From NCBI GenBank assembly GCA_964016885.1, contig OZ024744.1, forward strand, positions 52,328,001-52,392,000: a stretch of 64,000 nt of DNA, read 5' to 3'. How positions within the stretch are numbered: position 1 is the stretch's first letter; every line of letters starts with the position of its first letter. The notes under the pieces were generated by a model. That model had not been told where the DNA came from, ran no database searches, and saw only the letters and a program-made list of their open reading frames with translations. This document shows positions 3,603 to 52,484 of this stretch, piece by piece. Position numbers and translations under genes: made by a program. This DNA comes from Eledone cirrhosa (taxonomy: Eukaryota).

Positions 3603-3637
3603 GGGGACGTTTCGGGCATAAGCCCTTCTTCAGTCGA
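3603..3637 (-). ncRNA. Minimal hammerhead ribozyme in a PLE-type terminus
   Basis: Minus strand CTGAAGA-aGGGC-ttat-GCCC-GAAA-cgtc; stem I not evident. Its flank (3521-3600) recurs inverted at ~5275-5360. Confidence 0.6.
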
Positions 3638-3848
3638 AAAGTGGGTGGGAAGAGAGTTCTGAGGGTGTGTAGGGGAGTGGAGATATATATGTGTGTGTGT
3701 GTGTGTGTGTGTGTGTGTAATCTGAGTTTTTCGAATATTAATAATAATATTCGATTTGTTTGTAATTGTGCAAACAAACCTCATTCTTAAAGCCATGTCA
3801 GTAGAATGAGCCCCTTATTCTTTCTCTTGTGTTGGCATGTTAACAGAA

Positions 3849-3892
3849 CTGAAGACACTAATGTTTCTGGGTATCACCCTTCATCAGTACAG
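3849..3892 (-). ncRNA. Hammerhead ribozyme candidate
   Basis: Minus strand ctgta-CTGATGA-aGGGT-gat-ACCC-a-GAAA-cattagtGTC-ttcag. Lies in a unit bounded by ~50-bp inverted repeats (3735-3785 / 4112-4162). Confidence 0.6.
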
Positions 3893-3956
3893 GTCACTGT
3901 TCACTTGCCAACTGTCAGAGCTAGTGAAAATTGATATTTTCTAAAGTATACAGTAA

Positions 3957-4070
3957 CTGATCGGCCTGATTTGCATATTAGCAGACTGGCTGATCCAGTC
4001 AGATCTGCATGTTAGCAGATCCACTGATCACCAGATTTGCATATCAGCAGAGTGGCTAGTCAGTTTCATA
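3957..4070. repeat. ~33-bp tandem repeat (3-4 units) with ATTTGCAT octamer motifs
   Basis: ctgatcggcctgATTTGCATattagcagactgg / ctgatccagtcagatctgcatgttagcagatcca / ctgatcaccagATTTGCATatcagcagagtgg. Confidence 0.75.
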
Positions 4071-4493
4071 TTACGAGCGATTAATGGCCTACTTTGCTAT
4101 ATAAAACAAATATGAGGCTTCTTTGCATAATTGCAAACATATTGAATATTATTATTAATATCAGGATACATTTATTGTATTCAGCCATTTAGAGCGAACA
4201 TTAAAAAAAATTTTTTTATTATATATATATATGTCTGCATGTGTGTCTGTGTGTGCTCCTTGTGGATCTTTATCAGTTCGGGTGATGTTTGTTCCATTTG
4301 GGTTGTTCAACAGATCAGCCTGCTCGGGTGATTGACATGCAAGCGGCTTTACGTATCACAGATACGTGCCCCTGTAATATAATTCTCAGGTAGAACCAGT
4401 CTGATACAGTATATAGCCAGACTGGGGGGTAGGGGGGGGGGGGTGAATCACAGCTACAACTCCTTTTTCGAGATGAATGGGCTGTACCATGGT

Positions 4494-4899
4494 TAAGTAA
4501 AATATCCTGCTCGAAGACAAATACGCCATCGCGGTGGGAATCGAACTCACGCATTTGATTAGATACTTGGAGTTATATACGAACATGTCATGTGGCATAT
4601 GTACACACACGGGAAAGGTATGAAGAATATATATATAAATATATATATATATATACATATATATATATATATATATATATATATATATATATATATATAT
4701 ATATATATATATATATATATATATATATATATATATATATATATATATATATATATATATATATATTTTTCATACCTTTCCCGTGTGTGTACATATGCCA
4801 CATGACATGTTCGTATATAACTCCAAGTATCTAATCAAATGCGTGAGTTCGATTCCCACCGCGATGGCGTATTTGTCTTCGAGCAGGATATTTTACTTA
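4494..4899. repeat. Near-perfect ~135-bp inverted repeat around a (TA)n spacer, containing a SINE head
   Basis: 4494-4630 is the reverse complement of 4765-4899; includes B-box-like gagttcgattccc. Confidence 0.9.
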
Positions 4900-48330: not shown

Positions 48331-48585
48331 AATGTATACATACATGAATCTTGTCATTCTTTTATCGTCTGATTACTGTGTCCGTCCTGTTTCATGTCTA
48401 TTATTTCATAATTGATTAATTAATTTGTTAATTAATTAATATAGCCAACTAATCTCCACAACTTTTCTATTTAATCTTCATAAACAATTAGACGTATATG
48501 AGGGTAATCAATATTGGTTTCTCACTAACTAGAGCACCACATGTCTGTAGACTATTGATTCTCGTAATACTTGGCTACATACATA

Positions 48586-49525
48586 CATGGTGGCTGCCAA
48601 CTCGTTTTCGAGTACGGCCACTACCTTATATCCATGTAGGAGAACCCCTACCAATGCGCTGAACGAGTGTGACTTTTTAGTCCAGCCAGCGACTTGAAAA
48701 CTCTGGTACAAACACTACACTTGTGACAATTATTGACACACAGTGCTGGGCCCATGGTACCATGTGACGACAAGTGCAGAGAGATCTCCAGATATAAAGT
48801 AATGCCTGTGCCGTGAAGCTTTTATAGTGAGCAAAGGCACTGCACAAAGCCAGTCCCACTCTCTTAACCAAGATGATATTTACCAAAAAGAAGAACAATT
48901 CAACATCATTGGATACATACATACATACATACATACATACATACATACATACATACATACATACATACATACATACATGATAGTTGCCCCCTCGTTATCG
49001 AGTATGACCATTGCACGATATACCATTATTAATTAATTCTATCGTGCAATGCATGTGCGTGAAGATATTTTTTAAAGTGAGGAAAGACTGTGCACTGAGC
49101 CAATCCCACTCTCTGAGCGACAGTAGCTATAACCCGCAAAATCGGTAACTACTGAGCCGCAGGTTTTATATCGGAGTTATCCCAGGTTTCTGGGTTGCCT
49201 TCTCCTGGAAGAATGCCCTGACGAATTCTCCTGAAGAATGTCCAGCCCGACTATTTCTATGTCCCCGCGCATATACATACACATGCACCAATGTATATAC
49301 ACATATGTACATGTGTATATACATATTTACACACCTTTGGAGAGCCATTGACTCTTATGAGTTCTTCCGCCCTTTGTCAGGTTTTGTTTTTTGTCCTGCA
49401 GGATGTCCAAAATCACCCTTCTCACCAAGTAAACTTGGTGGGGTTGCCCGTTTAGTCACCCGACGACCCGACCATGTGACAGGTGTACTGGTTTCGATGT
49501 TACCAGTAGAACTCAAGAGTGACCC
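48586..49525 (-). mobile_element. Tandem RTE-related elements (family B 48586-48916, family A 48976-49525) in (ACAT)n
   Basis: Reverse complements of the 37.4-kb and 20.8-kb elements, separated by (ACAT)n. Confidence 0.8.
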
Positions 49526-50739
49526 GACATGCATACATACGTACACACACACAGTCAACGCGATCAGTCGTATATTTTGGCGTGGGAGACTATTTATTAA
49601 ATTTAAGATGAATACTATCTCCGACAGTTATGCCACAACTACATTCATGTTGAACAACTGTTTATTCTTCTAACTAGCCCTTCTGAAGACACCTTTTATT
49701 CGAATTCGTAGAGATATCCGACTAAATACATAATTCATTTTACAAGGATTTGCTACAAACAGCATGGCTGAACACAACATCAACAACAAAATTAAGGAAG
49801 TATCGAAGACAAACAACGATAAAGGTAAACAAACTTTATTCAGTTGTAGCTACAGAAGAAACCGAAATTATAAATCGCATTTCTCTTGGAGTTGCGAACT
49901 TAATAATGATTTATTTAAGAACAGGACTAGTTAGGAAATTACAAGTACAATCCCTTAATGGATCAGTAAAAATATGTAAAACATTGCAAAGATTTTGCAT
50001 CTAATAACTGCATATACACATGTACAGATACAACTCAAAACATCCACATCCACACATACAATAACATTAATATCCACACATGCATGCATGCAGACATACA
50101 TACATATCTACCTAGATGGTGTTGTGTAAATTCCAATCAGAGAGTCTCGTGTCTGTGTTAGAAACCGACTCTCTCTCTATTGGCAAACATTTGTGAAATT
50201 ATAAAACATACGTGCATACACACATAGTCATATATATAAAGGAAAAAATAACACGAGGAACTTCCACGTGGTCGTTCGACCTGCTAGAAATCGCAATCAC
50301 ATAACTCACAAAGAATATATATAGTGCTACATCATTATCATGATGTAGCCTCAGCCGAAATGAACCCAACGATAGTTCCCGATATGTCTGTCTCTCATTG
50401 CATTGCATTGACTCCATATGTCAAACAATACCTGAGTCCCCTGGCTTGTGACATCGTTTGACAGATGTTTGTTTCCAAAGCCCTTAAGGAGATATAGCTT
50501 TGTATGTGGTGTGTTGGCAATGTCCTGCAAATCGCAGAATATCAGAAATACGAGGGAGATCATCGCATATTGCTCTAAGACTCTTTTGTAGCCTCCATTT
50601 TATGTTTTGAGCCCGAGGAAGCAAGGAGGTAGATGCTCCATTTAGGTGCTGCTAGGAATTTTCTCTGATGTTCTAACCATTCTATGCCTTTAACTTTCTC
50701 ACAGCAGTTAAAAAACAACAACAATATATAATGGTTTCA

Positions 50740-50947
50740 GAGGTAAGCACAGAACAAACAGTTACTTGGTGGGAAAGTCAATTAAATCGATCCCAGTGCA
50801 TTCCTGGTACATTGCTGGGACTGACTTTATTATATTGACCCCGTAAGGATGAAAGGTTGAATTTGAACTCATAAAGTTAAGGGCCGTAAATCTATATTGT
50901 AAAGCATTGTTTCTGATGCTCTACCGATACTGCCAATCCAGCGCCCT
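50740..50947 (-). mobile_element. SINE family 1, diverged (others at ~54670-54845, ~53990-54090, ~39440-39520, ~24470-24565)
   Basis: gaccccgtaaggatgaaagg...ctctaccgatactgccaatccagcgccc. Confidence 0.75.
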
Positions 50948-51157
50948 AAAATTAATAATAAATAAACAAAATGACACCTAGGATAATATAGTCTTATATG
51001 TATTAGATATACTTTGGAATTGCTAAGCTTGGAAATTCTTTCACAATATATCGACCACAGGGGGATTTAACTACAGGAGTAAACAACAATACAACTTCAG
51101 GTAATGTGAATATCACTATATGGTCGTTCGAACGATTGGATATTAAAACTGTTATAC

Positions 51158-52484
51158 TCTGCTATGTATTGAGTACCTTACTTACTGTGGTTACCTCCGA
51201 TTCAACCTGGAATAACTTAATTTATATATATATATATATATATATATATATATATATATATATATATCATAAATCATGTCCTTAGAATTATTAGATAAAA
51301 TATATACCATTTCCTCTCCCAATTAGCATAATTAACCATATAAAAAATCAATTAGACCAGGCTATAAGAATAAAGGCTCCTATGAAGAAATATTTAATAA
51401 ATAACTGAAAGCAGCCTCTACGCGGTGACCCCAATAGGGTATTTATCCAACATTTCAACAGCATGTAGAAACTGACTAAATATACCGTCAACCATACACA
51501 ATTAGGTGTAAATTTAAACTTAGAAGAAACGTGTACATACCGTAATAACATCTCTACCATGGTTTCGTCCGTATTTTTAAATATTCTATTGTTAGGATGA
51601 ACCTAGAGTAACAGACTCTTCAGGAGTCAAACTCAAGTTGGACGAAACCATGGTAGAGATGTAATTACGGTATGTACACGTTTCTTCTAAGTTTAAATTT
51701 ACACCTAACTGTGTATGGTTCTAAGGACATGATTTATGATATATTGCTCTGATTATTTAATTTATTAGTTCTTCATTGAGCCACAACGTGACCAGTTGCC
51801 ACATATATATCTATGACTTTATGTATATGTAAATCTTTATATTTAATAATCTCCTGTTGGGTTGAGATACAATTGGGCGATATTGGGCTGCGCTTTCTAG
51901 CAACCAGCCTACTCGCCGTAAGCAACTAATCACATTCTTTCTAACTTGACCACTGCTACATCACGATTCTTAGCCATTTTTAAATCTATTTTTGGCGCGA
52001 TCGTTTTGGAAAATTAACTGTCCAACTTGAGTTTGTCTCCTGATGAGTTTGTTACTCTAGGTTCATCCTAAGAATAGGATATCTAAAAATACGGACGAAA
52101 CCATGGTAGAGATGTAATTACGGTATGTAGACATTTCTTCTAAGTTTAAATTTACACCTAATTGTGTATGGTTGACGGTATATTTAGTCAGTTTCTACAT
52201 GCTGTTGAAATATTGGGTAAATACCCTATTGGGGTCAACCGCAAAGAGGCCGCTTTCGGTTATTTATTAAATATTTCTTCATAGGAGCCTTTATTCTTAT
52301 AGCCTGGTCTAATTGATTTTTTATATGGTTAATTATGCTAATTGGGAGAGGAAATGGTATATATTTTATCTACTAATTCTAAAGACATGATTTATGATAT
52401 ATATATATATAGATATATAAATTAAGTTATTCCAGGTTGAATCGGAGGTAACCACAGTAAGTAAGGTACTCAATACATAGCAGA
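51158..52484. mobile_element. ~470-bp inverted repeats (51158-51643 / 52020-52484), PLE-type terminus
   Basis: Arms are reverse complements, each with an HHR; a third partial copy at 51640-51720. Confidence 0.88.
52036..52112 (+). ncRNA. Hammerhead ribozyme with extended stem II (mirror 51551-51627)
   Basis: tctc-CTGATGA-GTTTGT...ACGGAC-GAAA-ccatggt-A-gaga. Confidence 0.82.

Follow-up and report, generated by a model that had tools for sequence, protein, structure and literature searches.

Type I hammerhead ribozymes of Penelope-like elements in a 64-kb stretch of the Eledone cirrhosa genome, with sharp 5' ends in three element families

Type I hammerhead ribozymes (HHRs) are known from the pseudo-long terminal repeats (pLTRs) of Penelope-like elements (PLEs) in metazoans (Cervera & de la Pena 2014, PMC4209133), where the reason for their retention has been called unclear (PMC8557442), and in vitro the PLE hammerhead was dispensable (PMC11167929). 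We have analysed a stretch of 64,000 nucleotides (the window, G000:C28:52328001-52392000) in the 3.0 Gb genome of Eledone cirrhosa (2,996 Mb, 1796 contigs), in which hammerhead-like motifs are crowded between microsatellites. These motifs are real, occur far above chance and are the known hammerhead of PLEs. The best explanation of the whole, which we regard as very probable, is that short insertions of many PLE families in (TA)n bear them at their 3' ends as type I hammerheads, likely copied from element RNA that had not been cut, and that most of them are likely inert in place.

The ribozymes described in PMC4209133 have in common with the window families the core, the extra nucleotide after A9, the long helix II, the absent or palindromic helix III and the U3-A8 variant; likewise there are many heterogeneous families per genome, mostly as single motifs from truncated PLEs, and opposite-strand pairs lie 100-700 bp apart. 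The differences are a far higher count here (~1.3e5 estimated, with descriptors that differ), helix II inserts of up to 60 nt, and two families in which the core is fixed as U4C. Endonuclease-positive PLEs (Penelope/Poseidon, Neptune, Nematis, Hydra; Craig et al. 2021, PMC8557442) share the 5'-truncation, the adjacent inverted copy, the one-sided tail, the microsatellite targeting and the reverse transcriptase (RT) with a C-terminal GIY-YIG domain; however, truncation is described as variable there, whereas three families here have sharp, family-fixed 5' ends, and tails are 30-40 nt there compared with ~65-100 nt here. The anole Poseidon element PAc (Frangieh et al. 2024, PMC11167929) has two alternative 3' ends below the HHR, one short and one with tail, as found here, which is consistent with internal priming, and in both cases there is no sign of cut RNA as template; the PAc open reading frame starts inside the HHR, whereas here the HHR, known from sequence, lies ~1.1-1.4 kb behind the frame. 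Finally, the retrozymes of coral, mussel and axolotl (PMC7229834) likewise carry type I HHRs in very large numbers, but they are tandem non-coding units giving circular RNAs, and the motifs studied here are dispersed ends of coding PLEs.

The window was searched with a strict type I descriptor, which demanded a CTGANGA, TTGANAA or CCGANGA core, helices I and II of 4 bp or more each, the GAAA box, pairing of 15.2-16.2, and UH, and also with a relaxed one. Each was compared with shuffled sequence, in which, for the strict search, dinucleotides were kept within 200-nt blocks. Seven strict motifs were found (13208-, 13449+, 26142+, 30772+, 34915-, 34999+, 52040+) against a shuffle mean of 0.02 and a maximum of 1 (50 shuffles), and 13 relaxed motifs against a mean of 0.1 and a maximum of 1 (40 shuffles). 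A first-pass annotation had listed 22 coordinates; motifs do stand at these places, and every one of them has relatives elsewhere which share the type I hammerhead layout, hence none is a chance match. Seven of the 22 are strictly intact (13159, 13444, 26138, 30768, 34882, 34995, 52036). The intact motifs and their immediate partners are as follows.

13441..13501, plus strand: intact type I HHR of family G, helix I ACTGC/GCAGT, palindromic helix III; predicted cut 13493/13494
13156..13216, minus strand: intact type I HHR of family G, inverted partner; predicted cut 13164/13163
13109..13548, both strands: 440-bp fold-back in which family G stubs meet head to head at the family 5' pile-up point (-158 from the cut)
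26134..26196, plus strand: intact type I HHR of family H
30764..30828, plus strand: intact type I HHR of family H with another helix II sequence
34991..35036, plus strand: intact type I HHR of family K, U3-A8 core (TTGAAAA)
34878..34923, minus strand: intact U3-A8 HHR of family K, inverted partner
34810..35104, both strands: 295-bp head-to-head fold-back of family K stubs, junction -73/-67 from the cut
52032..52116, plus strand: intact type I HHR of family O with a long helix II insert
51547..51631, minus strand: near-intact family O HHR with a 3-bp helix I, the inverted partner, inside element 51159-52483

The family G sequence is 100% identical over 149 nt at 22 other loci among 41 matches, and its fold-back in the window carries a tail on the left arm alone. 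A family H 3' piece at 27852-27945 (minus strand) starts exactly at the predicted cut site, as a single case, and abuts an endonuclease remnant at 27911-28324 (plus strand).

Four further listed coordinates (5041, 38052, 42721, 51551) are found under relaxed rules only, the script having picked at 42721 a register different from our reading of it as a minimal motif. The remaining 11 have helix defects, broken cores or halves: in five (3603, 3849, 5449, 7866, 33195) the core is kept with a helix defect or a non-standard family form, and six (8153, 10564, 27049, 44206, 45577, 46660) are broken or half, with G at U16.1 in 8153, no G12 in 10564, T at G12 in 27049 and A at position 4 in 44206. Additional copies lie at 31057, 33190, 43860, 44696, 46334 and 46830, together with several 3' halves; these had escaped the earlier list, as marked below for those that have a row of their own.

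5037..5102, minus strand: family C HHR, matches its relatives; a mismatch closes helix II
38050..38121, plus strand: partly decayed HHR whose helix I consists mostly of G-U pairs; loci L098 and L271 hold intact relatives
42717..42760, plus strand: minimal HHR of family F, helix III one U-G pair; intact relatives have CG
10560..10603, plus strand: family F minimal HHR without G12
46326..46368, plus strand: family F minimal HHR, GAAA box destroyed; newly found
5445..5503, minus strand: family D HHR, U4C core, at the 3' end of a long 5'-truncated PLE (5411-7820)
7858..7916, plus strand: family D HHR, U4C core, in an inverted short copy of the same insertion as the 5411-7820 PLE
6859..7569, minus strand: GIY-YIG endonuclease remnant, ~1.4 kb upstream of the 5449 motif on the same strand
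46822..46880, plus strand: family D-like motif, broken core; newly found
3598..3641, minus strand: family A minimal HHR that lacks helix I, with an intact core and helix II
3846..3895, minus strand: family B HHR, one helix I substitution relative to its relatives
8149..8199, plus strand: family E HHR, U16.1 changed to G
27049..27119, minus strand: family I HHR, G12 changed to T
33144..33245, both strands: family J fold-back joined inside helix I, both HHR copies losing part of helix I
31049..31094, plus strand: decayed family K HHR inside fold-back 30977-31161; newly found
44202..44247, plus strand: family L minimal HHR, A4 here (family mostly U4C)
43822..43868, minus strand: family L inverted partner, G12 lost; newly found
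45562..45658, plus strand: family M HHR, core CCGACGA at 45571, an insertion interrupts helix I
44609..44704, minus strand: family M inverted partner, U4C core, passes the relaxed descriptor; newly found
46660..46674, plus strand: 5' half only of a family G HHR
12858..12986, both strands: family P fold-back, 3' half of the HHR on each strand
34569..34723, both strands: family P fold-back, 3' halves only
39081..39267, both strands: family P fold-back with tail, 3' halves only
32116..32178, minus strand: family P stub, 3' half only

Delimited by masked self-BLAST and by hand, the window motifs form ~15 families, in keeping with the earlier estimate of at least ten unrelated ones. The form CTGANGA given there is not universal: it fails for 34882/34995 (TTGAAAA, U3-A8) and for 5449/7866 (CCGAAGA). 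Similarly, one motif per 3 kb holds only when decayed remnants are included, but intact motifs stand at one per 9 kb, compared with one per 22 kb in the genome sample described below, and they had been overcounted about threefold. The suspicion that the motifs are unannotated agrees with the absence of any Rfam match at gathering score in the window, including Hammerhead_1 (RF00163), a threshold that 18 of 74 scored loci elsewhere in the genome pass; by E-value only microsatellite matches to microRNA models were seen among the 150 of 452 rows listed, and these were rejected. The CTGANGA sites at 29620 and 44553 were inspected as further HHRs and also rejected.

The genome was sampled in 120 stretches of 10 kb at round coordinates (1.2 Mb), drawn from contigs C1-C15, C17-C23 and C28, with C16, C24-C27 and the small contigs outside the sample. 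The strict descriptor gave 64 raw matches, reduced to 55 by a low-complexity filter and to 54 when a minisatellite match was dropped by hand; this minisatellite, at L121, mimicked the descriptor and made up 6 of the first 31 sample matches. Six shuffles of the sample yielded 0-2 strict matches per 1.2 Mb against 55, and with the relaxed descriptor 111 motifs stood against 1-5. By extrapolation, the strict density of 45 per Mb corresponds to ~1.3e5 intact motifs in 2,996 Mb (bootstrap range 0.95-1.9e5, computed on 55 motifs). The 200 kb beside the window hold 10 strict motifs, and the density of the window is about twice the average. A total of 72 strict motifs cluster into 20 groups, one of them an artefact, leaving ~19 families, which have the core in common and whose helices differ in sequence and keep their pairing; since pairing is built into the descriptor, it is the shuffle control that carries weight. 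Among 298 homologous ends in 1.46 Mb, 175 cover the whole motif and 75 of these were flagged strict (a few tandem copies being flagged twice). At L001-L005 we observed a separate family with a canonical short hammerhead above the RF00163 cut-off, which is absent from the window. Published HHR counts are 126,247 for axolotl and more than 6,000 for Acropora (PMC7229834), ~2,000+1,300 for Schistosoma, 4,000 for coelacanth and 9,000 for Xenopus (PMC4209133). With an axolotl genome of 28.21 Gb (10.64898/2026.07.22.740005), the motif density found here is roughly tenfold that of axolotl per Mb, a rough comparison across genomes as the descriptors differ between the published counts and ours. For cephalopods no HHR census was found in the literature, apart from 235 Rfam hits in giant squid.

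The position of the motifs ties them to PLEs. The HHR lies on the sense strand, ~1.1-1.4 kb behind a GIY-YIG frame and usually less than 200 nt from a 3' (TA)n; (TA)5 occurs within 200 nt downstream of 48 of the 54 sampled motifs as compared with 20% of random points. Because the ribozyme is 3'-terminal, almost all insertions have one regardless of their length, and often a second one in a head-to-head inverted copy: an antisense copy lies upstream in 28 of the 54 sampled motifs and downstream in 2. Long copies of family K have a same-strand GIY-YIG frame ~1.1 kb upstream (Pfam E 4.5e-5, over the cut-off), the endonuclease being inside 775-aa open frames in 19 of the 150 matches listed, and the database relatives of 741-772 aa contain RVT_1 and/or GIY-YIG. 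In family G the same-strand GIY-YIG frame is 1.2 kb upstream (Pfam E 5e-4, under the cut-off), and in 4 of the 150 matches listed the endonuclease belongs to frames of more than 800 aa (814-894 aa). A single open reading frame with RT and C-terminal GIY-YIG is thus supported for family K by these frames and relatives, and its GIY-YIG part for family G. These open frames, together with the many 100% identical ends of family G, mean that both families are young. Upstream endonuclease-like frames on the same strand were read by eye for families D, A and F; the link to an open frame covers K and G with Pfam support, and D, A and F by eye. The frame at 6859-7569 is 38% identical (E 1e-15) to the family G GIY-YIG frame at L175; it had no Pfam match, and neither had the endonuclease reading near 44206, where a by-eye C-terminus at 43948-44127 precedes the 44202..44247 motif. 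Adjacency of the motifs to GIY-YIG remnants, as claimed in the first-pass annotation, is therefore upheld for 5449 and is a by-eye reading for 44206, while the proposed PLE origin, the association with PLE ends (through the same-strand frames of K and G), the dimer-type palindromic helix III and the very large number of motifs were all borne out. The visible CxxxxCxxC linker of family K fits, on sequence grounds, the Neptune or Nematis clade. Families G, P and D show two 3' ends, one of them with a tail, and the tails (~65-100 nt) are on one end only. Miniature inverted-repeat transposable elements were ruled out, since the palindrome centres vary from copy to copy, the arms have unequal 3' ends, and the arms also run on into the 3' region of the RT element.

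Other coding remnants were observed as well. A zinc-finger and GIY-YIG remnant at 403-1032 (minus strand) is 28% identical to that of family K, and 26478-26785 (plus strand) reads by eye as an RT-region fragment, a PLE coding remnant. At G000:C4:28496970-28497437 and 28500882-28501349 (minus strand) the family K endonuclease occurs twice in 775-aa frames on the same strand, 3.9 kb apart; this is likely a tandem of full-length elements, which could give a dimer-competent transcript.

Variation of the core was compared with that of the flanks. At the 11 invariant core positions 30 of 1242 cells depart from the commonest letter, against 348 of 5075 in the 3' flanks (p 1e-10; ten families), and N7/H17 vary in 28 of 231 cells in the same ten families. 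The lower core variation agrees with selection acting in master elements. Within the largest uniform family, core departures (13/207) and flank departures (123/1564) are nearly equal, which would agree with neutral decay after insertion. Several families depart from the standard ribozyme. The U3-A8 core characterises families K and P, a variant that occurs in Schistosoma PLEs (PMC4209133). The U4C core is found as CCGAAGA in 28 of 33 family D copies and as U4C in 6 of 10 copies of family L, family M being mixed; it occurs in a viroid, where it lowers activity (PMC3088659), and it is absent from the text and the one searched supplement of PMC4209133. In family A helix I is absent or at most 2 bp in nearly all copies examined. 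Family P keeps the 5' half of the ribozyme in 4 of 48 unbiased copies, full copies existing at L149 and L267, and its 3' half has a stable helix III of 4-5 bp. Either the variant cores work with help, or their families spread with a weak ribozyme.

Most of the motifs are, as judged from predicted folding and position, likely inactive at their present sites. The intact window motifs have four types of helix III, calculated at 0.0 kcal/mol alone and at -3.2 to -11.2 as a duplex; stability as a duplex only is typical of dimer-type metazoan HHRs. A same-strand partner within 5 kb is present for 6 of 54 strict motifs in the sample and for 1 of 7 in the window, and 5 of these 7 have their own antisense copy upstream. 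In such a head-to-head pair a read-through transcript makes the antisense arm first; in predicted folding the probability of an unpaired core was 0.00 in the G and K palindromes, compared with 0.50-0.63 for the other three motifs.

The 5' ends of the stubs fall at fixed points in three families. In unbiased sets, 12 of 22 family K ends lie at -76..-69 (p 8e-12) and 23 of 35 family P ends at -45..-34 (p 2e-14), both against the most favourable exponential; in family G, 14 of 23 are at -158..-156 (mostly top search matches, query start -94). The junctions of the stubs vary per copy, being TA repeat, fold-back of varying length, tail or unique DNA. Cut RNA as template would start copies at the cut site, and it was rejected because just 6 of the 123 partial copies begin no more than 3 nt from that site. 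TATA and CCAAT boxes and their spacings are meant here in the textbook sense. Upstream of the family K pile-up, TATAAAA starts at a distance of 29-30 nt and CCAAT lies at ~80 nt. The Penelope promoter is known to sit in the pLTR (PMC2377424), and in a limited search of the literature no description of fixed 5' ends of PLE copies was found.

As part of the best explanation we propose how the stubs arise. The RT of the element would prime within the RNA a short way below the hammerhead, as has been published for the anole element; when priming falls near the RNA 5' end it would likely run off at the transcription start, leaving a stub of 130-300 nt, which may often snap back into a palindrome. 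Any action of the ribozyme would take place in tandem element transcripts, as a dimer or helped by the protein of the element. Scattered stubs, lacking a same-strand partner and often masked by an antisense arm, would decay. Going further, we suggest tentatively, at a little short of an even chance, that the PLE replication cycle has left its fossil record in these ~1e5 hammerhead stubs, as strong-stop-like cDNAs. If this is so, the stub length of each family maps its promoter, half of the ribozymes are silenced by an antisense arm from the moment of insertion, the load is among the densest animal ribozyme loads reported, and living families have fixed U3-A8 and U4C cores.

Several observations weigh against the best explanation as a whole. 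Family G has a CCAAT box and no TATA box at -30, the TATA candidate of family P is ambiguous, and no sharp 5' pile-up was seen in families D, A and F. The presence of TATAAAA in 19 of 20 long family K copies is a count uncontrolled for AT-richness. Core conservation does not tell selection in master elements apart from selection, even weak, on inserted copies. When folded in long context, all seven strict motifs, palindromic or not, have a helix I probability of ~0, so that core accessibility alone separates the palindromic ones, and the inertness of the stubs in place is something that we infer. Furthermore, 26142 and 30772, which belong to the same family and lie on the same strand 4.6 kb apart, have no antisense partner, and they are the best candidates for cutting of host transcripts.

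It is also possible, at clearly less than an even chance, that the fixed 5' ends come from RT stalling at RNA structure or bound protein, or from short non-autonomous masters, and are unrelated to transcription start. The pile-up of family P lies inside hammerhead loop II, beside a strong helix, as stalling would have it, and the missing TATA box of family G points the same way; but the TATA and CCAAT spacing at the family K pile-up is canonical, and junctions that differ copy by copy argue against one short master.

A functional self-cleaving load which cuts host introns or read-through transcripts, as the first-pass annotation supposed, appears unlikely. The ~45 strict motifs per Mb genome-wide would make such a load large, 26 of the 54 sampled motifs have no upstream antisense copy and some have long helices I and II, intact PLE frames are present whose protein could assist in trans (protein-assisted cleavage is described in PMC11167929), and the depletion of vertebrate retrozymes in introns hints at a cost (10.64898/2026.07.22.740005). 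Nevertheless, helix III is unstable as a monomer and same-strand partners are rare, and only 75 of the 175 copies covering the whole motif are flagged strict. Published monomers of metazoan PLE HHRs did not cleave, and dimers did so weakly (PMC4209133); the anole HHR cleaved only with the protein of the element, the HHR was dispensable for insertion, and no anole RNA-seq reads ending at the cut site were reported (PMC11167929). A Pfam search of 264 kb recognised no host exon, the 30 + 140 (of 183) open frames giving retroelement domains only, although short exons would escape such a search. Since half the motifs are defective, helix III needs a dimer, partners are rare, antisense arms are frequent and no host exon was recognised, cutting of host introns by these motifs is unsupported.

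It is quite improbable that the motifs are non-LTR (long terminal repeat) retrozymes, that is, non-autonomous tandem units expressed as circular RNAs. Same-strand HHR pairs at L116:2380/2975 (595 nt) and L281:5602/6069 (467 nt) are possible partial tandems or dimers, and a derivation of retrozymes from PLE ends has been proposed (10.64898/2026.07.22.740005); against this, HHR-bearing units do not form tandem arrays in the window, same-strand copies less than 5 kb apart are as rare as stated above (6/54), and the copies reach upstream by variable lengths into endonuclease-coding sequence. That the motifs are chance matches in AT-rich, hairpin-rich DNA, as the L121 minisatellite was, has next to no probability: the shuffle controls rule it out, with 0-2 matches per 1.2 Mb compared with 55, and the motifs recur in multi-copy families at a fixed place in the element.

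The rest of the window is also repetitive: at least 74% of it is simple repeat or similar to other examined loci, and (TA)n, (CA)n and (AAT)n are abundant. Two decayed copies of a long interspersed nuclear element with apurinic/apyrimidinic (AP) endonuclease and RT (13992-17330 and 59646-62860, minus strand) are 92% alike over 2.6 kb and both stand behind an (AAT)n run, with a third, more distant copy at 63034-64000. A repeat of ~190 nt, resembling a short interspersed nuclear element, has at least 7 copies (2094-2199, 10109-10298, 11627-11792, 17612-17801, 23330-23522, 50824-50962, 54732-54793). Another repeat family (29551-29885, 30196-30374), with 13 matches among the examined loci, contains CTGATGA in inverted copies and misfits the hammerhead layout. 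The region 21500-23300 is relatively GC-rich and non-repetitive, and its 122-aa open frame (22124-22489, minus strand) has no Pfam match. Microsatellite-flanked palindromes or inverted repeats with no recognised hammerhead (4494-4899, 23524-23770, 36790-38839, 37353-37746, 48586-48912, 55491-55881) are possibly further retroelement fold-backs.

Hammerheads in PLE ends are already known and in themselves ordinary; the present analysis adds the size of the load, the fixed 5' ends and a young panel of many families. This panel would serve in cleavage and transposition assays: it offers ~19 families, at least two of them young with full-length open frames, with standard, U3-A8 and U4C cores, and it includes one family that has lost helix I and one whose stubs drop half of the ribozyme. 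Head-to-head pairs, if transcribed, would be a large source of double-stranded RNA. If the sharp 5' ends are transcription starts, then solo pLTR stubs would be run-off products, and the promoters of these elements could be read from the genome sequence.

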